IMG/VR virus record: IMGVR_UViG_3300023174_007844
Span: 16,399 to 80,398 of that record
DNA from: a virus
Direction: 5' to 3' (one strand)
Length of the DNA stretch: 64,000 nucleotides
Shown here in pieces: positions 11,678-60,968 of the stretch. Within the stretch, counting starts at the first letter, position 1. Each line of letters starts with the position of its first letter. The position numbers and the translations under genes are program-made. Under the pieces are notes generated by a model. The model did not search any database and was not told where the DNA came from. It was given only the letters and a program-made list of their open reading frames with translations.

Positions 11678-11787
11678 TGTTAAACCCTCCAAGGAATAAC
11701 GTTAAACTAGGTTTAATATTCTAGATATAAAGGGCTGAAAACTCCTAAAAAAGAAAAGTAATCATATCTCTAATTTGGATCTCATTT

Positions 11788-14322
11788 ATGTTCAATTTAA
11801 AAAAACACGTATCAGCTGCAGATTTATCCACAAAAGTATCTCCAGAAGAAATTCCAGGCAGAACGATCGAAGAAAAAGCTGCCTATATTTCTGAATACCT
11901 TGATAGAGAAATTGGTGAAAAATTAGCAGCTGGAGAAATCGGTATTGATGCTGCTTACAAGTTATTGGCAGAAACAAAAGTAACAGGCGTACCACAACAA
12001 TTTGAGTTTCTTGAAAAATACAGAAGTAATATCACTTCTTTAATTCAATCAGCTTGTACTATCAAAGAGCAATTAGAACAAACAGGATTAGATCCGAATC
12101 AAGTTTCTGAGATTATTATCAAGAAATTATTAGAGCGTGTCAATCAAGTATTTATTCCTGAATTGATTGAATTAAGTAGAACATCAAAAAGAAACTCTCC
12201 TGAAGCCACTGAAATTTTAGGAAGATTGCCAGACTATCAAGATCCTGATCAAATTGCTTCTATCAAAACATGGATATCTAAAGAAATTGAGAAAGAAGTA
12301 AATGAGATTATTGACGAATACAAAGAAATTAGAAGTCGTGCATTACAGATTCCTAATTTTGATGATAACGATTTGTCAACTATGCTTACTAATCCTCCAG
12401 CTGAAGCATTAAAAGTATTATTCCCTGATAGAAGGAAAACATCAAAAGAACCATTGCCTTCTAAATTTACAGACCCAACAGTTGTCAGAGATGTTGAAGG
12501 TATTAATGAAGAAATTCAAAAATTAGCTCGTAAAACTAATGTCAAAGGCGATACTGGCTGGACTAAAGTTCTTGCATTATCTGGGAAAATGGGTGAAGAA
12601 GAAATAGCAAGATGGAGCAAATTAATTGATCACCCTATCAAGTTTAATTTGTATGAAATTGTCAAGAATGCAGGTTTATTGTCCGAATTAAGATCTGAAA
12701 GTCCTAAAGTTTTAAGGCAAACTGGTTTTAAAAATCCTGAATTAAGACAACAATTTTATCAAATTTTCTTTCCTCAATTTGATCCTAGCACTGGATTACC
12801 TTTCTTATCAGAATCTGAAATGAGATATATTGATGAGAATTTTCCTGGTCAAAGACCTCAAGATATACCTTTCAATATAGATAGGAGAATGGATGCTATC
12901 AAACGTTCTCAAATAAAGTTGAAAGATAATTATGCAAAAAATAGACTTTATGAATTTATTCAAGAAGGTTACGATGGTCCAGGGATAGTTAAATTAATTC
13001 AATCTGATATGCTATCTGTAGATCCAGCAGGTTTGGCAATACAATTTTATTATAGAAGTATATGCAAATACAATATAAGCCAATTTAGGAGCGATTTGAG
13101 GGATATTGGCTTGACTGAAGTCAGTGAAGCTTTAACATCTCAAAACCATATTCCTGATCCTAATTATAATTTTTTGGGGCTTACTACAAGGTCTACAGAA
13201 GAAGCAAGAATTATAGAAATTTTGAGAAAAGAATTTGGTATTGATGCTATTCCATATCAAGTTTTAGTACCAATTCCCACTGACTGTCCAACGAATGTAA
13301 ATAATTTTGATATTGACTTTATGATTTATGTAGATGTTTTAGAATACATCGATCCAGTCACTTTTCAACCAGTAATCAAGTCAAAAGTTATGTTTGTTGG
13401 AGAATATTTTGGCTACGACAGTGATGACCCCAAAACAATTGTAGATAGAGGAAGACCTTGGGTAGATCCTGATGGCAATGTTTTCACTCCTCCACCACAA
13501 ATTAGTAAAAAAACTGGTGAAGTAATGAAAGAGTATGAGCCTCTTCTTCCTGGTGTTAAAACAAGAGAAGGAAATATATATAAGCTTAAGACATTATGGA
13601 AAAAGAGAACTTATTCTACTCTTGCTCATATTGTTGGCACTGATGCTTTGAGCTTTGAAGAACAAGATTTAAAAGTCCCATTCAATACAATAGCTCAAAA
13701 ATTAGATGAGAAAAATATTATTTATTCTTATTCAGGTTGCAGCAATACAAACAATTTCTGCAAAGCTAAGAAGATGATTGACAATAGTGTTGACTTTGAA
13801 TTACAAGCAAATATTGACAATCCAGATTATCGCAGAATGATGGTAAATGATGACAAGAGAAAATGCATTCGTGCAATTGACTCTGCAATATTACATTACA
13901 AATTACAAAATGCAGTAAAGCAAGCTAAAAAAGAATTCATTGGTAGAGCTGGATTTGATAGAAAGACTATCAAGGAACATCATGATTATGTTGAAAGCAT
14001 CAAGCACAACATAGACAATGCATCTAGAATTATAATAAGTCCTAATTCTACAGCAGAACAAAGGATGTCTGCTCAAAAAATGATAGAAGCAAATCAATCG
14101 GATATGACAACTTTAGAAAATTCACCATTAAGACCGTTCAAGTCAAGAGTTGATGAAATATTATCTGAAAGACAACATGTTGAAAGATTACAACAATTTG
14201 AGCAACTTAAGAATGCTATAGAAAATGGAACAATATCAACTGACTTAAACGAATTACGAAAATCATTAATGGAAATTGATGAGGGTATTTTTGGATTCGT
14301 TACAGATCCAGAAAAATTATAA
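11788..14322 (+). CDS. Large protein with PD-(D/E)xK-like nuclease domain and MFNLKK leader; probable virion protein
   Basis: RSTEEARI...FDIDF...VGEYFG resembles a restriction-endonuclease fold; upstream AGG-N19 motif. Confidence 0.55.
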   Translation: MFNLKKHVSAADLSTKVSPEEIPGRTIEEKAAYISEYLDREIGEKLAAGEIGIDAAYKLLAETKVTGVPQQFEFLEKYRSNITSLIQSACTIKEQLEQTGLDPNQVSEIIIKKLLERVNQVFIPELIELSRTSKRNSPEATEILGRLPDYQDPDQIASIKTWISKEIEKEVNEIIDEYKEIRSRALQIPNFDDNDLSTMLTNPPAEALKVLFPDRRKTSKEPLPSKFTDPTVVRDVEGINEEIQKLARKTNVKGDTGWTKVLALSGKMGEEEIARWSKLIDHPIKFNLYEIVKNAGLLSELRSESPKVLRQTGFKNPELRQQFYQIFFPQFDPSTGLPFLSESEMRYIDENFPGQRPQDIPFNIDRRMDAIKRSQIKLKDNYAKNRLYEFIQEGYDGPGIVKLIQSDMLSVDPAGLAIQFYYRSICKYNISQFRSDLRDIGLTEVSEALTSQNHIPDPNYNFLGLTTRSTEEARIIEILRKEFGIDAIPYQVLVPIPTDCPTNVNNFDIDFMIYVDVLEYIDPVTFQPVIKSKVMFVGEYFGYDSDDPKTIVDRGRPWVDPDGNVFTPPPQISKKTGEVMKEYEPLLPGVKTREGNIYKLKTLWKKRTYSTLAHIVGTDALSFEEQDLKVPFNTIAQKLDEKNIIYSYSGCSNTNNFCKAKKMIDNSVDFELQANIDNPDYRRMMVNDDKRKCIRAIDSAILHYKLQNAVKQAKKEFIGRAGFDRKTIKEHHDYVESIKHNIDNASRIIISPNSTAEQRMSAQKMIEANQSDMTTLENSPLRPFKSRVDEILSERQHVERLQQFEQLKNAIENGTISTDLNELRKSLMEIDEGIFGFVTDPEKL

Positions 14323-14323
14323 T

Positions 14324-15190
14324 ATGGCAATTTATACATCCAACCACTTAGGTAAATGGCACTGGCTCAGATACAATTCAAATATTCTTTTAATTGAAGA
14401 ATTTACATCTGAAATTGCTAGAGCAGTGTCACATAAAAACTTAATACAAGGTTCGGCTGGTGTTCATGTTCTTTCAGTTAATGGAATCACTGAGACATGT
14501 ACTTTGTCATCAGATGTTTTGTTACAATTGCCTCAAGGTCAGAATTTTGTAAATGGAAAAACACCTAAAATTGTTATTCCGCCTTATAATCCAGCGTACA
14601 AAGATATATTTGATTTAATCATTACAGATTTTGCAATTGTAAAAGCAAATCTCGACAGACAATCTTATATGTCTCAAAGAAATTTACTTACTTCAGCTTC
14701 AATTTCAATAGGGAGCAATATTCGCTGTACCTTAAATTACAATTGTCTTTTTGATAAAATGTTTGATGAAATCAAATTTGTTGATGCATATTCAAAAGCT
14801 AATGATTTTTTGGCTAGAACAGCAAAAAATTATGATTGTAGATTTTTTGCTACTGCTGGGTTTGACGAAACTTACAAAGTTTTATCTGGCAATATTAATA
14901 TAAATGTATCATATCAAAAAGTTTATTTACTTAATTTAGAATCAGAGTATCCCTTATATTCACCTCAAGGGTATGAAGTTACAGGTTCTATAGTAATTCC
15001 AGCAAAAAATTGGTATACATTGAGGGATATGTATAAGTCTCAAGTTGTAAAATTAACTAACATATCCATAGTAATTGGCAATAGATACTTAAGATTAGGT
15101 CAAGTTATTGTTGAGGATAGTGTCAAATTGTCTATGGGAGACAACATGATGACAGCAGAAATTACATTCAAGGGATTTGCAAGACTATAA
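14324..15190 (+). CDS. Putative tail-tube-like structural protein (paralog A)
   Basis: Beta-strand rich; colinear similarity to the next ORF; likely start MAIYTS at 14324. Confidence 0.45.
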   Translation: MAIYTSNHLGKWHWLRYNSNILLIEEFTSEIARAVSHKNLIQGSAGVHVLSVNGITETCTLSSDVLLQLPQGQNFVNGKTPKIVIPPYNPAYKDIFDLIITDFAIVKANLDRQSYMSQRNLLTSASISIGSNIRCTLNYNCLFDKMFDEIKFVDAYSKANDFLARTAKNYDCRFFATAGFDETYKVLSGNININVSYQKVYLLNLESEYPLYSPQGYEVTGSIVIPAKNWYTLRDMYKSQVVKLTNISIVIGNRYLRLGQVIVEDSVKLSMGDNMMTAEITFKGFARL

Positions 15191-16128: not shown

Positions 16129-16147
16129 CAACCTGTACAAATTTGGT

Positions 16148-17473: not shown

Positions 17474-18163
17474 ATGAAAACAATTTTTTTAAGCCCATCA
17501 GATCTAGCATTTTTACTAGATGATAGTCCTTGGGGATTTTATCAGAAGTATAATCTAGGCATCAAGCGGCCTCCAGTAATTATTCCACGTATCTTTACAG
17601 TAATAGATGTTCTTACTAAAGTTTGCTGTGAAGACAAGAATATGAAGGAATTAAATTCATCTTTTCCTGATGCAATTCTCACTGGAGCAGATCAATGGGT
17701 GAAAAGTAAGCCTATCGTAAATCCAGATTTTCCTGATGTCGAAATAATCCTTCGTGGAAAAATTGATGGTGTATTAAAATTTGCTGATGGATCTCATTCT
17801 GTCATCGATTTTAAAACTTGTGAAATTCAAGAAAAAACTTTGCAGAAATATGTCCGTCAATTATCTTGCTACAGTTATGCTATGGCAAATCCAAATTCTG
17901 CATCAGACTATTCTGTCAAAATTAATGACAAAATTGGTTTATTTGTATATGAACCAAATAAGTTTTCCATTGCTGAAGATGGATCTGCCAATTTGGGTGG
18001 AAAGCTTAAATACATTGAATACGATCTTGATTTAGATGCGTTTGCAGAATTTATCAAGAAAGAAGTGATTCCTCTAATTGCTGGCAAAGAACCACCGCCA
18101 ACAGATGATGATCCTTGTTGGGTGTATATAAAACAATTTGGATTTGAATACGAGGAAGATTAA
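17474..18163 (+). CDS. PD-(D/E)xK RecB-family exonuclease
   Basis: LRGKIDG...VIDFKT...QLSCY. Confidence 0.85.
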   Translation: MKTIFLSPSDLAFLLDDSPWGFYQKYNLGIKRPPVIIPRIFTVIDVLTKVCCEDKNMKELNSSFPDAILTGADQWVKSKPIVNPDFPDVEIILRGKIDGVLKFADGSHSVIDFKTCEIQEKTLQKYVRQLSCYSYAMANPNSASDYSVKINDKIGLFVYEPNKFSIAEDGSANLGGKLKYIEYDLDLDAFAEFIKKEVIPLIAGKEPPPTDDDPCWVYIKQFGFEYEED

Positions 18164-18218
18164 AAACTGTATCAGAATACTAAACAATAATAAGTTTAGT
18201 ATTCTGATTTTTTTAACT

Positions 18219-19169
18219 ATGAGAAAAAACATATCTACCTATAATCACAAGAAATTTGCTCAGTCTTCTAGTAATACAAAAGCAACGTTAGCTAGATTAA
18301 CTAATCCAGACTACATCAAGTCATTGTTGTTGCAACCAAATCTTGGTGACACATTTGCATATTTGTCATTTAGATATGTATTTAGTGACAATGAATTAAA
18401 TATCAAAGATAAAACAGAATTTGATAAAAAAATTTACACCAAAGATAATGTTGATAAATACATAAGATTTCTTGATGTTTTAAATAAAAAAATAAGATTC
18501 ACCGGAAGAGACAAAACAAGATTTGACAAAGGTATAGCTGCAGCTAAAGAACTTATAAACACAAAACTTAAGCAAGTAACTAATACAACTCCATCACAAC
18601 CACAACAACAAGGCGGATCTACAGTTGTTCCTGCAGGTTATGCAGCTCAACAAGTGCAAATAACACCTGAACAAGCCAATAAGCATTTAGGTGTCGTAAT
18701 TCCTACATTAATAACACTTTCAAAAGATAAAGAAAAAATAAGAGCATTTATATCAAGATATTCAATTGAAATTGACGATATTTTGTATGCAATGAATATT
18801 TTGAGAACAGATGCTAAGTATTATGGACAATATAATTCATATAACAAAGATTTATCTGAATTGTCTAAAATTTATTATGATTCTATGTTCCCTGCAGGAT
18901 GGTCAGTTGCTGGAAATTCTGTTTTTGTTCATGATGATAGAACCGTGGCCAATGAAATTTTGAAATTAATTCCAGAAGCAAAAACTAAGGGTGATGCTTT
19001 TACTAAAGCAAATGAAAAAATTAAAATTTTCCAAAATGAATTTCTCGATAAAAACCCCGGAAACACTGATATAGCGGAAATTGCCAATAAAATAAATAAA
19101 GAAATAGACAAATTTAATGGCGACAAAGTAAATGCAGAAAAGATGGGGCGACTTACAAGACTAAAATAA
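18219..19169 (+). CDS. Hypothetical protein with KKFAQ leader; probable virion protein
   Basis: Likely start MRKNISTYNHKKFAQ; AGG-N19-GAATAC at 18153-18180. Confidence 0.6.
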   Translation: MRKNISTYNHKKFAQSSSNTKATLARLTNPDYIKSLLLQPNLGDTFAYLSFRYVFSDNELNIKDKTEFDKKIYTKDNVDKYIRFLDVLNKKIRFTGRDKTRFDKGIAAAKELINTKLKQVTNTTPSQPQQQGGSTVVPAGYAAQQVQITPEQANKHLGVVIPTLITLSKDKEKIRAFISRYSIEIDDILYAMNILRTDAKYYGQYNSYNKDLSELSKIYYDSMFPAGWSVAGNSVFVHDDRTVANEILKLIPEAKTKGDAFTKANEKIKIFQNEFLDKNPGNTDIAEIANKINKEIDKFNGDKVNAEKMGRLTRLK

Positions 19170-19204
19170 AGGGCAATTTTTAATAATTGTTAAAATAGAA
19201 AATT

Positions 19205-20101
19205 ATGTTTACAAAAGAATTTATTAAAATTAGTAAAGTGCTTGATGAATATGGTTTACATAGACAAGCTGATAATTTATTGAAAATTGCCCAACTTGCT
19301 ACTGATCCAAAAAAATTTTATGGACCTACACAAACAGATACAGTAAAGATTAATCCTGATGATTTTGTTAATTATAAAAGTTTAGTATCAACAAAAACAG
19401 ATCTTCAAAATAAAATAAATAGCTTAAAAAAGGGTGATAATACAGATAAAAATGTAGCTCTCAGTTTAGCAACCGAATTAACAAATTCATATAAAAATAA
19501 TAAAATAGATTATTCTTCATACAAAAAACTAATTCAAGACTTAAATTCAAAAGCAAAAGCAAATGATTACAAAATACAAGATGCAGTTGCTATTGGCCCA
19601 ATTAATCCACGAGCTTATCCTGATCCAAGCACAATAAATGAAACAGCTTCGCAAGGTCGTGGTAGAACTCAAAATCCTGACGGATCTTTCACTGATCAGA
19701 ATATACCTATCCAGCTTGCTTCACCTTTTGAAGGAGTAACAGGCAAAGGAGAAACAGCTTTTCCAAATAGAGAGTACAGAAACTTACCTGAATTACAAAA
19801 AGATTGGAATGATTATTTTACAAAGCCTGAATTCAAAAATTCAATACAACAAAGAATTGATGAGATACAAGCAAATGATATAAAGAATAATACAAAAACT
19901 GACACAAGCAAATTAAAAGCGTTGTTAGATAAATCAAATTCTCCAGATGGATTGCAAGTGGGTGATTTTGGAAATGCTGAAGAAACAACCGTGTGTGATA
20001 GTACAGGGAAGTGTGAAAAAGTGAAATATGCGCCAAATAATACATTGCCTACACAAATTTATGGCACAGAATCTAATCCAACTTTTAAGCCTAACAGATA
20101 A
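19205..20101 (+). CDS. Tagged hypothetical protein (LD..G...AD..KIAQ leader)
   Basis: MFTKEFIKISKVLDEYGLHRQADNLLKIAQ. Confidence 0.7.
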   Translation: MFTKEFIKISKVLDEYGLHRQADNLLKIAQLATDPKKFYGPTQTDTVKINPDDFVNYKSLVSTKTDLQNKINSLKKGDNTDKNVALSLATELTNSYKNNKIDYSSYKKLIQDLNSKAKANDYKIQDAVAIGPINPRAYPDPSTINETASQGRGRTQNPDGSFTDQNIPIQLASPFEGVTGKGETAFPNREYRNLPELQKDWNDYFTKPEFKNSIQQRIDEIQANDIKNNTKTDTSKLKALLDKSNSPDGLQVGDFGNAEETTVCDSTGKCEKVKYAPNNTLPTQIYGTESNPTFKPNR

Positions 20102-23883: not shown

Positions 23884-23920
23884 ACCAATAATATACTGGA
23901 AGAAATAAAAAAGACCCTGA

Positions 23921-33337: not shown

Positions 33338-33566
33338 AAATAGTTAGAAGATTATTTGTTTTCTTTGTAATCGGTTTCATCACTTATCTTTTATTATCAA
33401 TGAAATAAAAGATTTATCTGGAGGGAAAGTATGAACGACAAAGATAGAAAACGTGATGCTTTATTTGTAATCTTATATAGCATTATAGGATACTTGATTA
33501 TTCTCATAGCAACAAGATAATAATTTGTAAAAGGTTATAAATTATAAAATTATAAATAAATAAATT

Positions 33567-37459: not shown

Positions 37460-37547
37460 TAAATAATCCTCATATTTATTTATGGGGATTATTTGTTTTA
37501 AAGGGTATAATTGTATTTGATTCGAATAAATTATTGGTAGTACAAAA

Positions 37548-39567: not shown

Positions 39568-39621
39568 TAAAGGCAAAAACGTTTACAATAATCAATAATA
39601 AAATAGTTTATAAATCAACTA

Positions 39622-42327: not shown

Positions 42328-42386
42328 TCAGAAAAATCTCATCCTAAACAGATGGGATTTTTCTTTTTAAACCAGAATAAATTATT

Positions 42387-46679: not shown

Positions 46680-47020
46680 TTTTCATCGAATGTATGATGG
46701 AAAATAATAGATGTTTCTCTGACAAAGATTTTTATAAATTATTAAAAACCCAAAGACTAGATAAATCAAAAGTAAATTTCAATCAACTTATGCAAGCATT
46801 TTTAATTGAATTTGAATTTGATAATTATGAGATTTTAGACAATATATGGCAGCCTAAAGGATCATTTGTTTCTCATAAAGCAATTTGGAATATAATTGAT
46901 GAATTAGAGTTACATTTAGAAGTGGAAAATTCATTGGGTGGATTTTACGAAACAAGTTGTGATGTAGTACAGAAAATTAATAATTATCTTTGGTTATGCG
47001 AAAAAGAAGCCTCCCAATAA
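46658..47020 (+). CDS. Hypothetical protein
   Basis: 120-aa ORF. Confidence 0.55.
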   Translation: MEEFFAVVFIECMMENNRCFSDKDFYKLLKTQRLDKSKVNFNQLMQAFLIEFEFDNYEILDNIWQPKGSFVSHKAIWNIIDELELHLEVENSLGGFYETSCDVVQKINNYLWLCEKEASQ

Positions 47021-47055
47021 AGGGGGGCTTCTTTTTTTATAAGAAACTTATTGAT

Positions 47056-47520
47056 ATGTATGCTGAAAAACTCTTAAGGATAGCAAGTAAATTAGATAGC
47101 TTAGAACAGTATAAGTTAGCAGATAAATTTCTAAAACTTGCTCAAGATATGTCTGTTCCTTATTATGTATATCCCACTCAGCAAAAATATGATTATAGAA
47201 ACAGAATACCAATGAAACGAGATTTCACTGGCAAATCTACAACAGAAATAGATAATAAGTTTGGTCAGGATGCAAAAATATATTTACAACAATTAATAAA
47301 AGATCCATTATTATTTGACCATCCACAATCAAAAATAATGTTAGACACTATATTAAATGATCCTGACTATAAAATGAATCAATCCTCTTTAGTCAATATG
47401 GTTAATATATATCGAAATCATTATGAGCAACTAAATGACAATAGAAATGATATTCATGCAATTGCTGATTTGGAACCAGAATTACACAAGCACTTAGACA
47501 ATATGTTGAGTAAAACTTAG
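47056..47520 (+). CDS. Tagged hypothetical protein
   Basis: Likely start MYAEKLLRIASKLDSLEQYKLADKFLKLAQ at 47056. Confidence 0.7.
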   Translation: MYAEKLLRIASKLDSLEQYKLADKFLKLAQDMSVPYYVYPTQQKYDYRNRIPMKRDFTGKSTTEIDNKFGQDAKIYLQQLIKDPLLFDHPQSKIMLDTILNDPDYKMNQSSLVNMVNIYRNHYEQLNDNRNDIHAIADLEPELHKHLDNMLSKT

Positions 47521-52300: not shown

Positions 52301-52335
52301 CCAGCTGTGATGATCCTAAAACTATACCTTTTCAT
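49324..52335 (-). CDS. Large protein with TSWCIG domain and C-terminal tag
   Basis: GDDTSWCIG...NMWQSY...FFVVFD; ends MVKIAQKLDFKKEYRLADKLTYIL. Confidence 0.7.
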   Translation of the reverse strand: MKRYSFRIITAGIKEDIQAICNHLGKDAEYYQDLRETVKKYDQKYQVFAAWILARNIEADEYVEAIQKYIDSRRITKFSVSKNAVKINDEVFDDAIKLTEYIHAQFPILEAEEQATNTETEDVPVVANKDNSIRIFEINNANDGRRLVGDDTSWCIGYKGPNNMWQSYRDSHDASFFVVFDNNPPTENQRKVAIDFASENVLLTDIPNITGHQLTNGWDWDKYSQYLTSKGINLQATRPNPETGQEELILKNKPKSTEERLQNGTFNYIAALGVEDILLWQSGKSKVNGEDSDIQRIDKNSLDIIEEVSDRSGIAYILNNPDAKFYTSRWMGLGKRVKDEVLEYLSRSVGGEDLLMKYVNTGLQLSETQYQFFRKNKNLLTSYLRSQIIGGRRFSPLMQIDLINLNRKDLFEQLIEKQGGIDEIAQPTLKEKPDFLRIYLETLIENDNLQTGIGVRLNDADLLLDLNDRDLLIKYISTVKTFVPNGVRNLIFEDPKLFLLYAKNRLTDNDLVDYTSAFPKNDLKNVVLQSGDKSLIKEVAMATGFDKNDFEKAKELGVFEEVKYSILCPKPSKDITKYYNPSDPFDLSLINQIKNVDLLREFSFNNFDEYSGTYQYDWSNNPTINFAFDLKEHEQTILKDAHYAYKDRPEEIIPHNANQTLLWAIYNDGKLFKKFEEVEMSDEAKENFRDAIQEFQNAIQDINFWKNFFKNIDHFADWIGSNLNFNENDFANILRFIPQEFLEDPEIKEFLQRKMNNISARYFMSNIDIEKTPWLYEDYINQFLDGNRYVRSEFYRVLHRGRSYAFEFLSKILEKRKFSDEEIDSFKDFTPDIMLEFLDLYTHYYPEVKEDPNFYNLDIFSYFRNRPNLNHQLHLLRNYPKFFEMQVLNGDVYVNIMPEIRAALVHMYPNLAPKILAYERKSKYGTGYFDEETGQVMKGKRPTPPETQKELPDPFASEEDVPEEDEELTTAFVNSMVKIAQKLDFKKEYRLADKLTYILRKKI

Positions 52336-52376
52336 AACATTTTTATTCCATTATTTAGTATACAGTTTCCTATTTC

Positions 52377-52440
52377 GCATCCCAAAACACAAAAACAGGG
52401 GCTGCTTTTTCAAAGCCCCTGTTTTTGTGTTTTGGGATGC
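52377..52440. repeat. Perfect 27-bp inverted repeat (10-nt loop)
   Basis: GCATCCCAAAACACAAAAACAGGGGCT / AGCCCCTGTTTTTGTGTTTTGGGATGC. Confidence 0.9.
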
Positions 52441-52446
52441 TCCTAA

Positions 52447-52779
52447 CTACTTTTGAATACCATCAGGACGACCTTGCTTGCCACCACCCTGACCACGACC
52501 AGCAGAACCATCTACTCCGCCACGATCTACAGTTGGAAGAGTAGTCTTTGCCACAAGCTTCAATCCATCAACACTAAATTGATAAAGAGTGTTACCTGAA
52601 ATGACATAAACATAATTGCCAGAAGCAGCTACAGAAGAACCACCCCCAGCACGTCCACCACCTTGACCAGGACCAACCGGACGAGGAGCATCCTGACCTT
52701 GGAAGCCACCTGGAACCTGTGCAAAAACGACACCGAGAACAGCCAAAGAAGCTGCAAGAGAGACGAGCACTTTATTCAT
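52447..52779 (-). CDS. Small secreted Gly-rich protein
   Basis: Signal peptide ...VVFA-Q; VAASGNYVYVISGNTLYQF; higher GC. Confidence 0.75.
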   Translation of the reverse strand: MNKVLVSLAASLAVLGVVFAQVPGGFQGQDAPRPVGPGQGGGRAGGGSSVAASGNYVYVISGNTLYQFSVDGLKLVAKTTLPTVDRGGVDGSAGRGQGGGKQGRPDGIQK

Positions 52780-52918
52780 AATTTTTACCTCTGTTCAATA
52801 GACGAACAATAGTATTATATGTTCAATAAATGAGTGAAAGATTAAGATAGATCTTTTAGCAAACAGAAACAAAAAAAAGATCTACTTTCGTAGATCTTTT
52901 TTTCTAATTTGCTAAAAA

Positions 52919-53818
52919 TTAATTGCAGCCTTGATAATCACCAGTAGCCCAGAGACAAAGATCTCCTACTGCTTTCTTGTATTGAACAGCCTTAGCGTGT
53001 CCATCTACAAAAATACAGTTGACAGTACCAGTATGTCTAGCACCAATTTTATTCAATCCTGTTGCAGCGTCGAGAGTGCCACCAGATGCACTCCAGTTTG
53101 CGTTTCCAAGATTCTTCCAATAATACTTATATTGGCTACCTTGTGAATTTACATATGTTTGGATAGCAGCAATATCTGAAGTAGTAAATTTAGTAGTATC
53201 AAGTAAACCTGATTCATTCATTACATCTGGAACTACACCATAGTAAGAAGCATCAGATACAAGAATAATTCCAGCAGGTCTGGAAACGCTAGCTGCTGCA
53301 ACACTTTGTGGATTACCACTAGCATCAGCGAATGAACCAGCAGGACTCATCCAAGCATCATTATGTCCATATGAGTTTTGTCCACCATAGTTTGTTCCCA
53401 ATGCTCCTGGTGCATTGAAATTGATCTTTGCTTTATCTCCTGGTGCAAAAGCAGTTGGATTGCTAGGACACTTGAATAAAGTATAGTTCTTTACATATGG
53501 TTGAAGTAAGTGTACCCAGTAATAACGCATAGAAGAATTTGCATCGTAAGCACTAGCAGCTGGATCTCCTACATACTGAGGACAAACCTGAAATGCGCCA
53601 GAAGCATCACGGCAGTTGAAACGGTGTGGGTAATAGTTCTCATCATAGTCTTGGACATACATCATAGTAGATGTACCAATCTGTTTCATATTAGATAAGC
53701 AGGATGCAGAACGAGCCTTATCACGAGCCTGGGCAAAAACAGGGAAGAGAATTGCAGCCAAAATAGCGATGATTGCAATGACAACGAGGAGTTCAATAAG
53801 AGTAAACGCTTTTTTCAT
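52919..53818 (-). CDS. Prepilin-type N-terminal cleavage/methylation protein, DUF1559 / H-X9-DG family
   Basis: [36 protein letters not shown]...CLSN.KQ; C-terminal [16 protein letters not shown]. Confidence 0.93.
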
Positions 53819-53941
53819 TTTTTAGTTTCCTTTTAGAAATCTGTAATTATTATTCCACTAAATAAGTAAAGATATATTAAGAGAAATAAATAATTTCTTA
53901 ATAAAAAGGAGCGCATATCCTAAACTCTCTATAATAAAAAT

Positions 53942-54430
53942 ATGAAATACAAAATTACAATAAAAGGCGCAAAAGAACAGAAGTATCTTTTCCTAGATAT
54001 AGATGGAGTGATGAATTCTTTCAATGATTACAATGTGACAGGCGAAGAATTCCTAGATAAAATAAATGATATATCTTTTGTAATTAGTAAGAAACAAATA
54101 GATCTTTTAAACCAAATAATAGAAAAATATAATCCTAAAATAGTGCTGTCTTCCTATTGGCGCACAAGATATCCAATAGAAAAAATAAATAAGATATTTA
54201 AAGAAAATGGATCGAAATGCGCAGTGATAGCAAAGACAGATGAAAAAGGCGAAGAACACAAAGACAGATGGGAACAAATAAAAAGATTTATAGATAAAAA
54301 CAACATAGAAAACTATATAATATTAGATGATGATAGTTTGGGCAATAAAGCCAAAAATCATATCAAAACAGATCCATACAAAGGTTTAGAAAAAGAACAT
54401 ATAGACAGAATAAAAAAGATATGGAAATAA
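53942..54430 (+). CDS. HAD phosphatase (Swiss-Army-Knife RNA-repair-like HAD)
   Basis: FLDIDGVMN, IVLSSYWR, YIILDD, GL. Confidence 0.8.
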   Translation: MKYKITIKGAKEQKYLFLDIDGVMNSFNDYNVTGEEFLDKINDISFVISKKQIDLLNQIIEKYNPKIVLSSYWRTRYPIEKINKIFKENGSKCAVIAKTDEKGEEHKDRWEQIKRFIDKNNIENYIILDDDSLGNKAKNHIKTDPYKGLEKEHIDRIKKIWK

Positions 54431-54466
54431 ACTAGTGAAAATCAATATTACAGAGAATAATATATT

Positions 54467-54955
54467 ATGAAAAAAGTAATTGCTGGATACATAGAACTCG
54501 CAAATATTCTTGATGATGCTGGACACGAACAAGAAGCGCAAGAATTTACTGAACGTGCTGTCAAACTAGCTCAAACTCATCAATCATCAACTAATCCAAG
54601 AAAATTAGAATCTTTTAAAAGTATGGTTAATCAAGACGCAGCAAAAGCAACTGATTTAATTATGCAAGCAATGAAAGGTGAAATTTCAAAAGATATGCTT
54701 AATTCAGAAATAAAAAGCATGTTGAAAAAACAAGAATCATATAAGAAAAATGAAAATATCAGTAAACATGATGAAGATATATTATTAAATAGCATAGTAA
54801 ATAATAATAAAACCAAATCATCAGATGGCCCAAAGTTCAAAACAGTTCAAGAAGCAAGAAACTATTACAGCCAAAAACATGTATTTAGAACTACTGAAGA
54901 AGCTGAACAATTTGAAAAAGAAAAAAATCAATTCTTTAAGTCGCAAGGAAGATAA
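54467..54955 (+). CDS. Tagged hypothetical protein
   Basis: YIELANILDDAGHEQEAQEFTERAVKLAQ. Confidence 0.7.
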   Translation: MKKVIAGYIELANILDDAGHEQEAQEFTERAVKLAQTHQSSTNPRKLESFKSMVNQDAAKATDLIMQAMKGEISKDMLNSEIKSMLKKQESYKKNENISKHDEDILLNSIVNNNKTKSSDGPKFKTVQEARNYYSQKHVFRTTEEAEQFEKEKNQFFKSQGR

Positions 54956-55114
54956 ATGAAAAAGAAATTGTCTCCAGAACAAGAAGCATTATTAAGTAAA
55001 TTCAAAAGCGCAAATAATAATGGTGCAAAAACTTCTATAGATAATAAAAATGAAAAGGCTCTGACAAATGCGCCAAAGCCTCAAATAAGAAGAAGTGGTA
55101 GTAGAGGGAAATAA
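54956..55114 (+). CDS. Small basic protein
   Basis: Hand-translated 52 aa MKKKLSPEQEALL...RRSGSRGK. Confidence 0.5.
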   Translation: MKKKLSPEQEALLSKFKSANNNGAKTSIDNKNEKALTNAPKPQIRRSGSRGK

Positions 55115-55354
55115 TTAGACCGGCTGTGTCCAATCTGGGCCAGCAAGAATAGCTAAAATTTCTTCATATGTATGATAGTCAGATTTGGTAGTGAGACTTT
55201 CAACACAAGTTGGAACCGTATCTCCATCCCATTTCACAAAAGTCTTAGTGCCATCAACACTCTTGCGCAATGTATCAGCGCTAGTCTCTAAAACCTGCAA
55301 AAAATCAATTAGTGAAATTTCATCCACACTAAAAATAACAAATGTTCTGTTCAT
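55115..55354 (-). CDS. Conserved small phage protein
   Basis: Likely start MNRTFVIF; TLRKSVDGTKTFVKWDG...YEEILAIL..PDWT. Confidence 0.65.
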   Translation of the reverse strand: MNRTFVIFSVDEISLIDFLQVLETSADTLRKSVDGTKTFVKWDGDTVPTCVESLTTKSDYHTYEEILAILAGPDWTQPV

Positions 55355-55427
55355 AGTAATATTATAAAAGAAGGTGAGATAAATCTTCTTACTGTACATT
55401 AACATATAAATACCTTTATTTTTTGGA

Positions 55428-55817
55428 ATGATAATGAACAGACGAATCTTAATATCAATGAATGAAATTTGTGAAGAATTAGATAAATTGAATCTTGTGG
55501 AAGCATCTAATGAAATAACACGAGTTATGATGAAAATTGCACAAGAAAACACTAATCTTCTTGAAGAAGGAAGTTTAGTTGATTCTCCTCAATTTGCTGC
55601 TTGGACAAATTTTGGCAAATTTTTAGCCAAAAAAGATCCAGATTTTATTGCTCCAATAAAACCTAGAGTTTCAGTGATAACTTATGAAGATGTAACTGAC
55701 AAAGCACTTGCAGAATATCATACTTATAAAAATAACAAAAAACAAACTTCTAAATTTACTTATGAAGAAGAAAATAAACTCAAACAATTAGCATTAAATG
55801 CAGATAGGGCAAGATAA
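55428..55817 (+). CDS. Tagged hypothetical protein
   Basis: MNRRILISMNEICEELDKLNLVEASNEITRVMMKIAQ. Confidence 0.7.
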   Translation: MIMNRRILISMNEICEELDKLNLVEASNEITRVMMKIAQENTNLLEEGSLVDSPQFAAWTNFGKFLAKKDPDFIAPIKPRVSVITYEDVTDKALAEYHTYKNNKKQTSKFTYEEENKLKQLALNADRAR

Positions 55818-56161
55818 TGGGAAAATTTATTAAAACAGCGCTTCTTCAACAAAAAGAAAGATTAGAACAACAAGAAGTACAATTAGAAGAGGTGAGAAAA
55901 GGCGAACTTTATAAATCATTACAAGATGGCCTTTCAAAACATCACAAAACAGTGGATCCAAAGAATTTTGAAGATTTATTTGAAAAAGTGAGAAAAGGCA
56001 ATCCTAGCGATCCATTAGAGATCCAATTAAGTAAAGCTGGCCTTTATAAACAAAAAAATAATGTAGAAGACAAAACATTTACAGAAATATTAGAAGAAAT
56101 TGAAAAAGGTTTTCCTAAAGAAATTATAGAGATTCAATTAGATCCTAGAAGATATGAATAA
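55817..56161 (+). CDS. Hypothetical protein
   Basis: MGKFIKTA start; TAATG coupled. Confidence 0.6.
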   Translation: MGKFIKTALLQQKERLEQQEVQLEEVRKGELYKSLQDGLSKHHKTVDPKNFEDLFEKVRKGNPSDPLEIQLSKAGLYKQKNNVEDKTFTEILEEIEKGFPKEIIEIQLDPRRYE

Positions 56162-56612
56162 ATTAGTAAGAATAGCCCAACAATTAGACAAAAATGGCCA
56201 ATATAAAGCTGCTGACAAGATAGCTTCCATTTTACTTATGGCCATACAATATAAACAAGATTTAGAAGATGGTATTAGGGCTTTATTCAATTATTATGAT
56301 GAAAGAACATTAACAAGATTACTAAAACAAACAAATATTTTAGAAAATAATGGTGATATATCTTCTCGCCCATTCGATTATAACGAATTGATGCAAGAAC
56401 TAAATAATTTTGAAACAATATCACCAGAAGACATGCCAACAAGATCAGGAAATAATAATTATCAAAATTTAGAAGAAGTAAAATCTTCTATCATGAAAAC
56501 AATTGAAATTATAGACAAATTCCAAATATCAATAGCAAATGCACACGATGTTCAAAGAGAACAACAAAAGAAAATACAAGATTTACAGGGTGATATTATT
56601 CCCGACGAGTGA
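56154..56612 (+). CDS. Tagged hypothetical protein
   Basis: MNKLVRIAQQLDKNGQYKAADKIASIL. Confidence 0.7.
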   Translation: MNKLVRIAQQLDKNGQYKAADKIASILLMAIQYKQDLEDGIRALFNYYDERTLTRLLKQTNILENNGDISSRPFDYNELMQELNNFETISPEDMPTRSGNNNYQNLEEVKSSIMKTIEIIDKFQISIANAHDVQREQQKKIQDLQGDIIPDE

Positions 56613-56825
56613 AATTAATCTACAACAAAATATAAAACAATAAATTACCAAACTGTAAAGAGCTATAGCATTCCTATAGCTCTTTCTCTTTTCCCAATTA
56701 TATAAATGCAAATAATACGCAGCAACCCACATCAATAATGCATAAAGAAACCATTGAACTAAGTTTTCACTCTCACTTGCCCATATGAAATAAAAATATA
56801 ATTGTATCCCAAAGATTATTCTCAT
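56583..56825 (-). CDS. Small membrane protein
   Basis: Hydrophobic 80 aa, coupled to upstream gene. Confidence 0.5.
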   Translation of the reverse strand: MRIIFGIQLYFYFIWASESENLVQWFLYALLMWVAAYYLHLYNWEKRKSYRNAIALYSLVIYCFIFCCRLISLVGNNITL

Positions 56826-57547
56826 TAGAAATCTTCTGGATATGTTAGTTTAGAATCACTTTTCATTTCTAAACACTCTGGACGACCTATCATTTTATAT
56901 AATGGATTCCAATCATGTATAGTGTTCGAATCATGGTATGTGTTTATATAAAAACCATACACAAGATTTGAATAAGATTTCACCCATAAATCAAGCAAAT
57001 CATGGCCATCTTTGTAGCCTTGAACCCTAAATGTTTTTCTTAATCCTAAAAATTGTTTTGGTATGTAAAAAAATGTATCTACAACTCTTGGCAATCCAGA
57101 ATCGAGTTTTCTATTCTCATACCAACAAACACATGGAAATTTTACAACCTCATCATTTACATTAAATAAATTGATAAATTCATCCCTCAAAAATAAATCA
57201 TTTCTTGATATTACTAAAAAATCATAATCATTTTGCTTAAACAAATATTCTATATTATCTAATGCTTTTTGAACACCATAATATTGAGACAAATCATGCT
57301 GAGACTTAAAATTATAACTTTGTATATCTCCATAAACATCCATTAATAATTTGTCATAATTTGTTGACACAGTATCTAATGCAACATGAATAACATTGCC
57401 CTCTAATTGTAATTTAGAAAAGAGTTTTTTATGTGTGTTGGCAGCCTCGATTTGATCATTAATAAAATTTCTAGAGCCAATAATTCTACTAAATTGCCCT
57501 CCTTCTCGAAATGACTCACCTCTAATTAAAAACAATCCTTTTTTCAT
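56825..57547 (-). CDS. Putative glycosyltransferase-like protein
   Basis: LIRGESFR, YDFLVISRNDL, VVDTFF. Confidence 0.5.
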   Translation of the reverse strand: MKKGLFLIRGESFREGGQFSRIIGSRNFINDQIEAANTHKKLFSKLQLEGNVIHVALDTVSTNYDKLLMDVYGDIQSYNFKSQHDLSQYYGVQKALDNIEYLFKQNDYDFLVISRNDLFLRDEFINLFNVNDEVVKFPCVCWYENRKLDSGLPRVVDTFFYIPKQFLGLRKTFRVQGYKDGHDLLDLWVKSYSNLVYGFYINTYHDSNTIHDWNPLYKMIGRPECLEMKSDSKLTYPEDF

Positions 57548-57554
57548 AAAACTA

Positions 57555-57779
57555 TTATAAAAGAATATCTCTCTTCCAACTTTCTAATATTGAAGAAATA
57601 TTAGTACCGAAACATCCTTTCCATTTTGGCGCAGGAATGTCAAACTCGTCCAAATCCACTTCATATATTTTTAAGTAATAGTCTGCGCTTAAAATATAAT
57701 AAAATTCCATATCTCCAAAAAATATTTCTTTTCCCTGATTATCTAAAATATAATCCCGAAATTCTATCAAATTTTTCAT
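57555..57779 (-). CDS. Hypothetical protein
   Basis: Likely start MKNLIEF. Confidence 0.5.
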   Translation of the reverse strand: MKNLIEFRDYILDNQGKEIFFGDMEFYYILSADYYLKIYEVDLDEFDIPAPKWKGCFGTNISSILESWKRDILL

Positions 57780-57867
57780 TGCTTGGAAATAATACATATA
57801 AATAATATAAAGGGAAAAAATAATTTGATTTGTAAAAAGATTATAACAACCTACACAGGAACAAAAA

Positions 57868-58689
57868 ATGAATAAGAGACAAATAGTAGCATCCCTAAAT
57901 AAAATAGCAAATGAACTTGACGATTCAGGTATGTACATAGAATCTAAATCTGTCACAAATGTCATGAAAAAATTAGCACAATCTAATTTTATCAAAAATA
58001 GATTTATTGAATTACACCCACAAATTCAACAAGAAATTGATAGACTAAAATCTGCAAAACCAGGCTCAGGGCTAATTGAAATATCAGATATTTACACTAA
58101 TAATAGATATTGGAATATGCCATCATTTATTGATGAAAAAAATATTTCACAAAGAATCAAGCAACTACAAAGCCCAGAATATCAAAAAACACTTGCAGAA
58201 AAAAGACTTAAGTTCATTTCTAATAAATTAGAAACAGAAAGATTATCAGATACCGATAGACAAACATTATTAAACGATCTTAAATATCTTAAACAATTCG
58301 TGTCAGCTCAAAATCTTTCTGATAACCCAGAACTCAATTCCCAAAAACAAACACCACAAACCGCATACGAAAGAATGCAACAAACAGAAGCTGAAGAACT
58401 AGATAAACTGAATCCTAAACCTATTGATTATAACCAAAAAGTATATGAGATTGTCTTTAAAGAAATGAGGAAAGCATACCCAAGTAAATCAGATACAGAT
58501 ATAGGACTCTCATTGTCTAATAAAACAAATCTTCAAGGATATAAAGAAATCAATAAAAATCCTGAACTTAGAGATAATATCCTAAATGCTATAAGAATTT
58601 TTTCTAGCAAATTTATGGATGCAGAACAAGCATACAGAAAACTAAGCGGAATATTTATGAGCAAAATAAGTTTTTCGGGAGTGAGATAA
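57868..58689 (+). CDS. Tagged hypothetical protein
   Basis: MNKRQIVASLNKIANELDDSGMYIESKSVTNVMKKLAQ. Confidence 0.72.
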   Translation: MNKRQIVASLNKIANELDDSGMYIESKSVTNVMKKLAQSNFIKNRFIELHPQIQQEIDRLKSAKPGSGLIEISDIYTNNRYWNMPSFIDEKNISQRIKQLQSPEYQKTLAEKRLKFISNKLETERLSDTDRQTLLNDLKYLKQFVSAQNLSDNPELNSQKQTPQTAYERMQQTEAEELDKLNPKPIDYNQKVYEIVFKEMRKAYPSKSDTDIGLSLSNKTNLQGYKEINKNPELRDNILNAIRIFSSKFMDAEQAYRKLSGIFMSKISFSGVR

Positions 58690-58717
58690 AAAAGAGGAGC
58701 AAAGCTCCTCTTTTTTA
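58687..58717. terminator. Bidirectional terminator, copy 1 of 3
   Basis: AAAAAAGAGGAGC-AAA-GCTCCTCTTTTTT. Confidence 0.88.
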
Positions 58718-59308
58718 TTTAATCACATCTTTTAAAGTTTTACTTATTAAATCCCAATTTTTGCCTCTAATAATATCATCTTTACTCTTATTAAATATTT
58801 CTATAACCTTACTATCAAAACGCACAGAAACATAAGAATTACCACTAAATAACCCTTCTAACAACCTGAAAACTTTTTCATCATCGCAATAAAACCCAAT
58901 ATAACCCACCACTTCTTTCTTTCCACTACATATATCGCTAAACTCTCTATAACTAAAAGGAATCTCCCAATTAGGATCCATTAAAAAATATTTATTATCA
59001 TTCTCGCAATTATTTAACCATAAACCAATAGTGCGAATCTTTTTCCTATCACCCAAAAGATTTTTCCAAGCCTTATCAATGAAATTCTTTGTGCGATTAT
59101 GGCCCTCGCAACTTGGCAACGTGTCATAACCATTATTGTTCAAATACTTTACAATACTCTTAATTTTTGGATCTAAAGTGTCATCAAGCTCTGCACTATT
59201 AAAGCTATCACTCTTGCGCTTCTTAAAATAATACCAAAGATTATGATCCTCACTGTAAAACCAATCATAATACTTCAACTTGTCAACACCAATTGGACTA
59301 ATTCTCAT
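58715..59308 (-). CDS. Hypothetical protein with LN..G..T..SCEGH motif
   Basis: LDPKIKSIVKYLNNNGYDTLPSCEGH. Confidence 0.65.
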   Translation of the reverse strand: MRISPIGVDKLKYYDWFYSEDHNLWYYFKKRKSDSFNSAELDDTLDPKIKSIVKYLNNNGYDTLPSCEGHNRTKNFIDKAWKNLLGDRKKIRTIGLWLNNCENDNKYFLMDPNWEIPFSYREFSDICSGKKEVVGYIGFYCDDEKVFRLLEGLFSGNSYVSVRFDSKVIEIFNKSKDDIIRGKNWDLISKTLKDVIK

Positions 59309-59389
59309 AATGTATTTTTATTCATATCAAAACAAGATTCCTAAAAGGATACAATAATAAATACTTAAAATATTACTATGGAGACCATA

Positions 59390-59884
59390 ATGAATAAAAG
59401 AATAATTTTATCATCCCTAGCAAATATAGCTGACGATTTTGAAAACAGTCACGAAATTCTTTTAGCTAATAGAATCAATCTAATTATGACCAAATTAGCT
59501 GAAAAAGAACAAGACTGCCCAGATGCAACACAAGATATTGAACTCAACCTCAAAAATAGACAAAAAGCTATCAATGAACACGGATATGGACCAGCTGACC
59601 CATCACAACCAAATGACAAATTCTGGAAAAAGAAAATGGATATGTGGAAAGTGGATGACCTATCAGAAGTGAAAAACATGCTATGCGGTAACTGTGCTGC
59701 TTTCGATATTACAACAAAAACAATGGACTGCATAGAAAAAGGCATAGGAGAAGATGCCACAGAAACCATAAACGCAGGAAAACTTGGCTACTGTAAATTC
59801 TTAAAATTTAAATGTGCAGCCAAAAGAACTTGTGACGCTTGGGTGACAGGCGGACCAATAACTGACAAAAAAGATAAGAAATAA
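59390..59884 (+). CDS. Tagged Cys-rich (metal-binding) protein
   Basis: MNKRIILSSLANIADDFE...LANRINLIMTKLAE; CGNCAAF, GYC, FKCAAKRTCDAW. Confidence 0.72.
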   Translation: MNKRIILSSLANIADDFENSHEILLANRINLIMTKLAEKEQDCPDATQDIELNLKNRQKAINEHGYGPADPSQPNDKFWKKKMDMWKVDDLSEVKNMLCGNCAAFDITTKTMDCIEKGIGEDATETINAGKLGYCKFLKFKCAAKRTCDAWVTGGPITDKKDKK

Positions 59885-59885
59885 A

Positions 59886-59916
59886 TAAAAAAGAGGAGCA
59901 AAGCTCCTCTTTTTTA
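59886..59916. terminator. Bidirectional terminator, copy 2 of 3
   Basis: Identical to 58687-58717. Confidence 0.88.
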
Positions 59917-60915
59917 TTCTATTACTTCTGTATCACTATTATCTGGCTCATAACTATCAAGATATTTCTTTACATCAATATAAAGATTTGTCAAATATTT
60001 TGCAATTTGTCTTATATATTGAGGATTTAAGTTTCTAATTATCTGTGAAAATAATAAATCATCGATGGTATATTGAGTTGTTTCTTTAATATTATTATAA
60101 AGCTCAGATGTTTTATATGAACTGCTAACATCTTTGATATTTACTATGGTTTGTATTAGAACTTTGAACTGCTCCAAAAATATCTCTTTACCTTTTTCTC
60201 TATTTTCATAATAAGTGTGAAATGTATGAATTAAATGATCGAAGCTGAAAAAAGTATCAAACTCAGATCTTATTGCTCTTAATTCACTTGGGTTTGCGTA
60301 ATAAAATTCAGAAAGGCCAAAAATTGAATCTTTTCTTCTGTCTAATTCCTTAAGGACTTTTTTTCTTTTTTTCCGCATTTCTGCATCAACTGGTTTTTCA
60401 TAACTACTTGTATCGCTCCAATCAACCGTCAAGTCTCTTGCAAGATCATATCTGGCATCTTCTCTTGAGCTTGATAACGGTTTTTGATTTGGAAGCGATT
60501 TATAAGTGCCAAAATTATCTGTTGAATGTAATTTGCCAGAACCTATATATAATTCTTTCTTACGAAAAGGTAACAAATCTTCAATAGCATGTATAATCTC
60601 GTGCTTTAATGTCGATTTCAAATAATTCAAATTTAGATTTTGATAGTGATATATATTCACAACAACTTCATGAGTTTCAGGATCATAATATGCTCCAGCT
60701 GTATCTGCTGAGCCTTCTGCATAACTAAATTTAAGATCTTTCAATTTGTTATCAGGAATATTTCTAAAATTTTCTTGAAATAAATCAATATCTAATTTGT
60801 ACTTGCCATTTGTATCAATGACTTTTGAAGCGTTAATAGCATTGTCAACATCCTGCTCAAATGTAGGACTCACAATTGACCATAATGACCCTTGTTTCGC
60901 AAATTTATACCACAT
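59914..60915 (-). CDS. Zincin-like metallopeptidase with MWY leader
   Basis: AGAYY, TLKHEIIHAIE, YYANPSELRA; MWYKFAKQ. Confidence 0.75.
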   Translation of the reverse strand: MWYKFAKQGSLWSIVSPTFEQDVDNAINASKVIDTNGKYKLDIDLFQENFRNIPDNKLKDLKFSYAEGSADTAGAYYDPETHEVVVNIYHYQNLNLNYLKSTLKHEIIHAIEDLLPFRKKELYIGSGKLHSTDNFGTYKSLPNQKPLSSSREDARYDLARDLTVDWSDTSSYEKPVDAEMRKKRKKVLKELDRRKDSIFGLSEFYYANPSELRAIRSEFDTFFSFDHLIHTFHTYYENREKGKEIFLEQFKVLIQTIVNIKDVSSSYKTSELYNNIKETTQYTIDDLLFSQIIRNLNPQYIRQIAKYLTNLYIDVKKYLDSYEPDNSDTEVIE

Positions 60916-60968
60916 ACCTATATAATACTGGAAACAACATTGTCTCCCCTAAACTCTGACACTAACAA

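Follow-up and report, generated by a model that had tools for sequence, protein, structure and literature searches.

A 64,000-nucleotide window of the IMG/VR virus record IMGVR_UViG_3300023174_007844 contains a set of two-box sites, an AGG followed at fixed spacing by an A-rich second box, most of which lie directly upstream of start codons. Judging from the sequence, we consider it probable that they form a genuine second class of promoters in this phage lineage, read by the host core RNA polymerase with a phage SigH-like sigma factor and giving leaderless mRNAs for non-early genes. The sites show positional enrichment and conservation of both boxes with fixed spacing, and relatives of the phage carry a SigH-like gene; from this we infer which sigma factor reads the sites, where transcription starts and when the genes are expressed. 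The boxes fit the SigH class that close relatives encode, so the phage would re-aim the host RNA polymerase with an unusual factor. The SigH-like sigma factor would join the host core enzyme, the resulting holoenzyme would recognise RWAGGA and (G)wAwAA, and transcription would start on or beside the ATG to yield leaderless mRNAs. Non-early genes scattered over the genome, among them the ones coding for proteins that begin with Met-Trp-Tyr (MWY), would be served by the AGG class, and a clustered, probably early, region by host-type TTGACA/TGnTATAAT promoters.

The window comprises bases 16399-80398 of a contig of 80,398 bp with 32.6% G+C. CheckV gives a completeness of 22%, which makes the contig a fragment of a phage of ~360 kb. 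It encodes DNA polymerase III alpha, ribonucleotide reductase, RecA, RecJ and a DnaB-like helicase, and the window has four tRNA genes, the only hits of an Rfam search at the gathering threshold. The sequence was found in lake and freshwater metagenomes, and a search of INPHARED gave no near relative. Relatives were found in IMG/VR: G001 (113.6 kb) is syntenic with the contig, with a DNA identity of 84-90% over the aligned blocks, and G002 is the same phage as G001. G003 (358 kb, 89% complete) is 72-91% identical to the contig across a shared stretch of ~94 kb, and G005 (120 kb) and some shorter contigs are further relatives. Sites are named below by the window position of the first base of their AGG, with a minus sign for those on the minus strand.

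Position relative to start codons

A preliminary description of the window listed 14 sites of this motif, all of which read in the sequence as listed. It also pointed out that an ATG follows the AGG shortly without a Shine-Dalgarno (SD) sequence, and this holds for nine sites, where the AGG (or TGG) lies 32-36 nucleotides before the ATG. Whether the motif is enriched depends on the test: as a free pattern it is not above shuffled sequence, but at a position anchored on the start codon it is. The AGG starts at -36 to -34 in 10 of the 103 called contig genes, where the other upstream positions would predict 2.94 (p=9e-4). A replication test with this interval specified beforehand was applied to the G003 genes outside the region homologous to the contig and gave 10 against 2.74 expected (p=5.6e-4), or 7 against 1.16 (p=2e-4) among those without an SD. 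The overall count for G005 was 9 against 1.95 expected. An unbiased k-mer test of positions -38 to -32 placed AGG, AAGG and AAGGA at the top, on par with the canonical TTGCA/TGAC. When upstream regions were modelled as a mixture of three classes, the TTGACA...TGATATAAT class separated cleanly, and the AGG sites fell together with terminator-proximal promoters.

Among contig genes with an upstream spacer of at least 30 nucleotides, 32 of 54 have no SD, and these show enrichment of G at -33/-32 and of T at -26 to -16 together with a -10-like pattern at -12 to -6. Intergenic gaps in G003 peak at 35-39 nucleotides, which is the size of one such promoter.

Anatomy and conservation of the motif

We aligned 22 non-redundant sites, chosen for their AGG, on that triplet. 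Their consensus reads RWAGGA, 18 nucleotides, then (G)wAwAAw. An A is found at -1 in 17 and at -2 in 13 of the 22 sites, and at +3 (AGGA) in 12. In the second box, A occupies +24 in 20 sites, +26 in 14 and +27 in 17, and the T of GAAT is present in 12. The AGG starts 23 nucleotides before the wAwAAw hexamer, equal to the start-to-start distance of -35 and -10 hexamers with a 17-nucleotide spacer, and sits where the TTG of a -35 hexamer would sit. Distances from AGG to ATG range from 33 to 37, and the box-to-box distance is tighter. The hexamer ends 5-7 nucleotides before the ATG at nine sites; a leader separates the second box from the ATG at 57811, 11731, 37502 and 39571. A second box so close to an ATG that has no SD predicts that transcription begins at, or immediately beside, the start codon, and hence that the mRNAs are leaderless.

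As an average of ten orthologue groups, the mismatch fraction was 0-0.13 at -2 to -1, 0-0.17 at +22 to +27 and 0.23-0.67 in the spacer. Diverged orthologues thus keep the boxes and their spacing while the spacer changes, most clearly at 53907, 57811 and 52371-.

Sigma factors of the lineage

Four open reading frames (ORFs) of the sigma-70 family were identified in G003 over the Pfam cut-offs for region 2, region 4 or both, at 64302-64868, 68634-69317, 203372-203911 and 219958-220527. One of the four is SigH-like, one clearly resembles the extracytoplasmic function (ECF) type, one is nearest to SigB/F/G-FliA models, and one matches a generic sigma-70/ECF model only. The gene at 64302-64868 has its own TATAAT 6 nucleotides before the ATG. 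Besides these, G003 has an orthologue of a zinc-finger sigma-like ORF of the contig (L001:4821-5795, minus strand, 324 amino acids), for which no Pfam, NCBIfam or PDB sequence match was found.

The SigH-like ORF (G003:68634-69317, 227 amino acids) matches PF04542 with 28.9 bits and PF08281 with 31.3 bits, both above cut-off. Its five best NCBIfam matches are all SigH models (E 1e-31 to 4e-26), and a generic ECF model comes next at 4e-14. G001, G003 and G005 all carry the ORF, at 91-100% identity, and its homologues, ~120 in number, go by the JGI name "sporulation-specific sigma factor". In G001 it occupies 85508-86185, ~5 kb past the point where the contig ends.

SigH-type promoters of Sporomusa, Bacillus subtilis and Clostridioides difficile have a -35 AGGA, a -10 GAAT and spacers of 17-18 nucleotides (PMC12456013). 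AGGA-17/18-GAAT is the same as AGG-N18/19-GAAT, the spacing given in the preliminary description and found in our alignment (G at +22). The resemblance to SigH promoters, at first regarded as loose, appears to be close: the AGGA box and the spacing match those reported (PMC12456013), and the second box does so with more variation. Where the SigH (Spo0H) promoters of Bacillota have AGGA, 17-18 nucleotides and GAAT, the sites described here have RWAGGA, 18 nucleotides and G-A/T-A-A/T-A-A. Unlike the former, they lie in a phage genome and mostly abut a start codon, and the presumed sigma factor would be a diverged phage protein.

Conflicting evidence and alternative explanations

A number of observations weigh against a separate promoter class read by a SigH-like factor, and other explanations draw on them. 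The motif is low in information content. For the window, shuffles predict 24.3 occurrences of AGG-N19-DAAWAH and 0.68 of AGG-N19-GAATAA; the observed numbers are 19 and 1, and a position weight matrix (PWM) built from the sites gave 35 matches against 18-37 in Markov shuffles. These counts are not above shuffles, so word frequency alone cannot support the motif. G005 genes without homologous promoters gave only 3 AGG against 0.63 expected, two of the three in hairpins, and this replicate therefore adds little. A search for sequencing runs that contain window positions 52300-61300 gave lake or freshwater DNA metagenomes in every case and no RNA run. Since the footprint alignments were anchored on the AGG, its conservation is partly by construction; conservation of the second box and of the spacing, unlike that of the AGG columns, is independent evidence.

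One possibility is that no separate class exists and that the sites are weak host-type promoters or chance occurrences, with the AGG contributed by terminator 3' arms, stop contexts (TAA-AGG) and by-eye selection in AT-rich DNA. The pattern is not enriched window-wide, and three AGG/TGG boxes are indeed terminator arms (23918-, 47021 and 42353, with hairpins of -12.6 to -25.5 kcal/mol). The site at 18153 falls in coding sequence and a terminator, and a TAA stop stands directly before 19170, 47021 and 39571. This explanation is nevertheless very unlikely, because the positional enrichment replicates in non-homologous DNA of G003. In addition, the sites 33532, 52371-, 53907 and 57811, far from stop codons and hairpins, show two-box footprints with a diverged spacer, and the A at +24 recurs almost throughout the alignment.

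The second box raises a different question. The preliminary description called the element a non-sigma70 promoter. A distinct class is supported by the -35 box, which is not TTGACA: between 46000 and 64000 no AGG site was among the TTGACA-type consensus matches listed, and the AGG stands in the -35 position. The label suits the second box less well, which is often sigma-A-like (TATAAT, TAAAAT or TATTAT at several sites). This box is also looser in the phage than in Bacillota SigH promoters, often reading TATAAT or TAAAAT and carrying the G at +22 in just 9 of the 22 aligned sites (41%). The host housekeeping sigma factor could then read the second box while a phage activator or adaptor binds AGGA, as MotA/AsiA do at T4 middle promoters. 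Hexamers of the sigma-A -10 type (A at position 2, T at position 6) are found in register at 53907 (TATAAT), 60950- (TATTAT) and 19170 (TAAAAT), and the out-of-register copy of AGGGGAGACAA at 61277- would suit a protein-binding site. Such an appropriation of the host sigma factor appears quite unlikely, given that the AGG lies at the exact -35 position with a 17-nucleotide hexamer spacer and not at the -30 centre of a MotA box. Moreover, many second boxes, such as GAATAA at 52371-, 42353 and 37502 and TAAAAA at 57811 and 59342-, do not match the sigma-A type, which requires at hexamer position 6 a T that they lack.

The sigma factor itself is the third point at issue. The preliminary description anticipated a phage-encoded factor, and the SigH-like ORF of G001, G003 and G005 answers to this, but a sigma-domain search of the contig found none, and the SigH-like ORF is not on these 80 kb. 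The SigH models NF006147, NF006148 and TIGR02859 score 105-110 bits against equivalog cut-offs of 208-295, so the ORF is SigH-like and not a filed SigH member. At least three other sigma factors of the lineage could read the sites, and 5 of the 22 aligned sites read AGGAAC or AGGAAAC, GGAAC being a common ECF -35 core. The class could thus be real and have another reader, either another phage sigma factor (two ECF-like and one SigB/F/G-like in G003, or the zinc-finger sigma-like ORF of the contig) or a host SigH. That G003 encodes four sigma-70-family ORFs is in keeping with this, as is the presence of AGGAAC/GGAAC, which resembles ECF -35 cores, at -38 to -32 in 4 cases against ~0.7 expected. 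We regard another reader as unlikely, since the 18-nucleotide spacing and the boxes agree with the SigH pattern described in the literature, the -10 boxes of ECF factors usually resemble CGT or GTC and are not A-rich, and the SigH-like ORF ranks with the better-conserved proteins of the lineage (91% identity). A class read by the SigH-like factor remains the reading that we favour.

Individual sites

We graded 19170, 33532, 52371-, 57811, 59342-, 59346 and 60950- as good, 23918-, 47021, 42353 and 37502 as ambiguous, and 11731 and 39571 as weak, and rejected 18153. One further good site was absent from the original list: at 53905..53935 (plus strand), AAAAGGAG (AGG 53907) is followed after N19 by TATAAT (53930-53935) and after N6 by ATG 53942 of a HAD_SAK_2 gene (Pfam). 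It has the best PWM score in the contig. In G003 its 19-nucleotide spacer is nearly all changed, and AAGGA, TATAAT and the spacing are retained.

The site at 52343..52373 (minus strand) consists of ATAGGAAAC (AGG 52371) and G-GAATAA (52348-52343) before ATG 52335 of a 1003-amino-acid ORF. The block AAATAGGAAACTGTATACTwAATAATGGAATA is identical in five relatives. It is kept in G003 next to an unrelated upstream flank and in G004 next to a different downstream flank, so the edges of the footprint coincide exactly with the two boxes. A TATACT inside the block offers an alternative -10. At 57809..57839 (plus strand), AAAGGGA (AGG 57811) and a TTGTAAAAA box precede ATG 57868, with a leader of ~25 nucleotides that carries an AGGAA SD before the ATG. 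A three-way footprint of G000, G001 and G003 retains AGG, 19 nucleotides and TTGTAAAAA, with a diverged spacer.

The site at 19168..19198 (plus strand) has an AAAGGG box (AGG 19170) and TAAAAT/AAATAG (19193-19198), with ATG 19205 following 6 nucleotides on without an SD; the G001 orthologue retains TAAAGGGCAATTTT and TTGTTAAAATA, its protein being just 40% identical. At 33530..33560 (plus strand), AAAAGGT (AGG 33532) and AATAAA (33555-33560) precede ATG 33567, again without an SD. The site is conserved in G001, but as this is a close relative, the footprint counts for little.

Two sites lie back to back. On the minus strand (59314..59344), TTTTAGGAAT (AGG 59342) and a ATAAAAAT box precede ATG 59308; the site is kept in G003 (149069-), with changes confined to the spacer and to positions after the box. 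On the plus strand (59344..59374), AAAAGGAT (AGG 59346) and TAAAAT/AATATT precede ATG 59378, with a second in-frame ATG 12 nucleotides after it. We grade the latter site as good or plausible; no orthologue was found for it. The two AGGA boxes make a palindrome, TCCTAAAAGGA, in the 69-nucleotide divergent intergenic region (59308-59378). Divergent gene pairs spaced by exactly one or two promoter lengths were seen both here and at 289849-289885 of G003, where the 35-nucleotide gap holds two fully overlapping promoters.

At 60922..60952 (minus strand), TTTAGGGGAGAC (AGG 60950) and G-TATTAT (60927-60922) precede ATG 60915 of an MWY protein of 333 amino acids. The site is kept in G003 (152708-) with a diverged spacer. 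Its AGGGGAGACAA box is found again at 61277-, where it is not in register with a TGATATAAT box, and might for that reason serve a regulator as well. The repeated element (T)GTCAGAGTTT...TTTAGGGGAGACAA precedes the two adjacent genes (60950- and 61277-) at differing distances from their -10 boxes and may be a regulator site instead of, or besides, a -35 box.

Among the ambiguous sites, 42351..42381 (plus strand) has TGGGA in place of AGGA (42353) and G-AATAAA (42376-42381) before ATG 42387 of an MWY NUDIX protein. The TGG belongs to the 3' arm of the terminator that follows tRNA-Arg. The G003 orthologue reads TAAGA...GGAATAA, and an unrelated G003 locus (195233+) has GGGAGATTTTTCTTTTTAA-N3-GAATAAAT in common with this site. 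The sole exact AGG-N19-GAATAA of the window, at 37500..37530 (plus strand, AGG 37502), precedes ATG 37548 of an HNH endonuclease, and a TATAAT (37506-37511) begins directly after its AGG. At 23890..23920 (minus strand) the AGG (23918) is in a terminator 3' arm (-12.6 kcal/mol), followed by G-TATATT and ATG 23883 of an MWY protein. At 47019..47049 (plus strand) the AGG (47021) is at the boundary between loop and 3' arm of a strong terminator (-25.5 kcal/mol), followed by G-AAACTT and ATG 47056. G001 and G005 retain this last module, and their version of the gene begins with MWY.

The weak sites are more distant from their start codons. At 11729..11759 (plus strand), AAAGGGC...GAAAAG (AGG 11731) lies 57 nucleotides before ATG 11788, which has no SD, and the second box is not kept upstream of the G003 orthologue. 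At 39569..39599 (plus strand), AAAGGC...CAATAA (AGG 39571) lies 66 nucleotides before ATG 39637, and there is no footprint because no orthologue was found. The rejected site at 18151..18181 (plus strand) has its AGG (18153) inside a coding sequence ending at 18163, and its GAATAC is the 5' arm of a terminator (-11.7 kcal/mol). In the stretch that follows (18164-18219), the gene at 18219 starts 5 nucleotides after a terminator T-run, with no SD and no recognisable promoter.

Genes and products behind the sites

Unrelated proteins begin with MWY (ATGTGGTAY) at 23883-, 42387+, 45594+, 47530+ and 60915-, and 15 more do so in G003. The preliminary description held that the motif marks genes with peptide tags, and took the promoter for a late one and the tagged proteins for virion components. 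The first part is borne out by the MWY genes of G003 that have their own upstream spacer, of which 5 of 7 have the AGG box; among other genes the figure is 16 of 179 (Fisher p=2e-4). MWY genes within operons have an ordinary SD and no AGG box. On these grounds we reject two other readings of the AGG, as an SD belonging to a small ORF upstream and as a signal linked with the MWY codons. At 47056, the contig gene begins with MYAEK and its G001 orthologue with MWY.

Among the domains of the MWY proteins are NUDIX, ART-PolyVal/DUF3990, PcfJ-like and a weak SprT-like match, all of types seen in injected "polyvalent proteins". Late timing and virion content are not supported by what lies behind the sites: an HNH endonuclease, a NUDIX hydrolase and a HAD_SAK_2 phosphatase-like protein are among the products, and most of the others have no family in PHROGs or Pfam. 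Structural matches in G003 are few and weak (baseplate-hub and head-protease-like), and the capsid and terminase Pfam models PF05065 and PF03237 gave no match in its 358 kb. A more far-reaching, and in our view doubtful, possibility is that the SigH-like sigma factor would drive a dedicated leaderless regulon. Its products would carry N-terminal address peptides (MWY and others) on small stand-alone domains of the polyvalent type (ADP-ribosyltransferase, NUDIX, PcfJ-like and SprT-like). Promoter, leaderless start and tag would then form a movable unit by which a protein is singled out to be packed into the capsid and injected when the next host is infected.

For the genes at 19205, 57868 and 59378 and the contig gene at -7919, only the promoter and the first 37-70 residues are conserved with relatives, and the remaining protein is replaced or diverged. 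The G001 orthologues match over 37 residues for 57868 and over 68 for 59378, and the orthologue of 19205 is 40% identical overall. Elsewhere in the window, the gene at 28875-31574 (minus strand) encodes a protein of 899 amino acids whose N-terminus resembles a signal peptide and which has an fn3/RGI-lyase-like beta domain and a repeat match to the PHROG "major tail protein"; the gene has a strong GGGGAGG SD and not a leaderless-type start. A gene-free stretch of 453 nucleotides contains three spaced runs of G8-9 at 61434-61666 (minus strand), two of which are followed by TGGTTAA(A/G)TTTTAT.

Host-type promoters and predicted leaderless starts

Metabolic and early genes had been assigned promoters of the TATAAT type, and a canonical TTGACA-N16/17-TGnTATAAT class does exist separately from the AGG sites, clustered in a putative early region. 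Its members read TTGACA/TTGCAA-N16/17-TGATATAAT, likewise lie 6 nucleotides from the ATG, and are concentrated in G003 between 153 and 200 kb and in the window between 62.4 and 63.3 kb, whereas AGG-type sites are dispersed over the genome. One canonical TTGACA-16-TG-TATAAT promoter at 62407..62434 (plus strand) ends 6 nucleotides before ATG 62441 and is also predicted to give a leaderless mRNA. Similar promoters lie at 63249-63276 (plus strand) and 63234-63207 (minus strand).

A TATAAT starts exactly at -12 in 6 contig genes and 20 G003 genes, often directly after a terminator hairpin and T-run, which makes a compact terminator-promoter-ATG module. Host-type promoters are likewise predicted to be built for leaderless mRNAs, with gene starts at 20325, 25343-, 28803-, 38625, 38938, 53942, 57547-, 62441 and 63283. 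The AGG-type sites show both marks used to recognise leaderless genes, namely no SD and a -10 box 5-8 nucleotides from the start codon. The tRNA genes are arranged in a similar manner: GGTATAAT is found 14-20 nucleotides upstream of the 5' ends of tRNA-Glu, tRNA-Gln and tRNA-Arg (38334, 38429 and 42233), so that primary transcripts would start nearly at the mature 5' end. A tRNA-like sequence that neither ARAGORN nor Rfam at the gathering threshold called follows a fourth GGTATAAT, at 37159.

Relation to known systems and significance

It is textbook biology that phage sigma factors re-aim the host polymerase. They replace the host housekeeping sigma factor in the passage from early to later genes, as stated for SPO1 (PMC13401047) and for jumbo phages (PMC7824862), and AsiA in jumbo phages is mentioned as well (PMC7824862). 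The sites described here would be comparable to the cascades of SPO1 gp28 with gp33/34 and of the "group 2" jumbo-phage sigma factors in that a phage factor replaces the host housekeeping sigma. SPO1 middle promoters have an AGGAGA-like -35 box. Unlike in those cascades, the sigma family here would be SigH-like, the consensus is another one, and several sigma factors reside together in one genome. T4 middle promoters (MotA box and sigma70 -10, with AsiA) likewise combine a host-like -10 with an upstream box other than TTGACA, but in our phage the upstream box is at -35, with the canonical 17-nucleotide hexamer spacing. As in known leaderless mRNAs, the -10 box lies 5-7 nucleotides from an ATG with no SD, and the leaderless starts predicted from this differ from the usual case in that both host-type and AGG-type promoters are built in this way and the tRNA genes, too, have GGTATAAT close by. 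A literature search returned no report linking a SigH-type factor and a matching promoter set to giant or jumbo phages.

If the favoured reading is true, these phages would offer a defined pair of sigma factor and promoter, testable in vitro without phage culture. The sites would also hint at a host with a SigH-compatible core polymerase, SD use, TGnTATAAT promoters and tolerance of leaderless mRNAs. The motif would provide a sequence rule that sorts many unassigned genes of uncultured 360-kb freshwater phages into regulatory classes, and the geometry of the promoter would itself dictate leaderless translation across two promoter classes.

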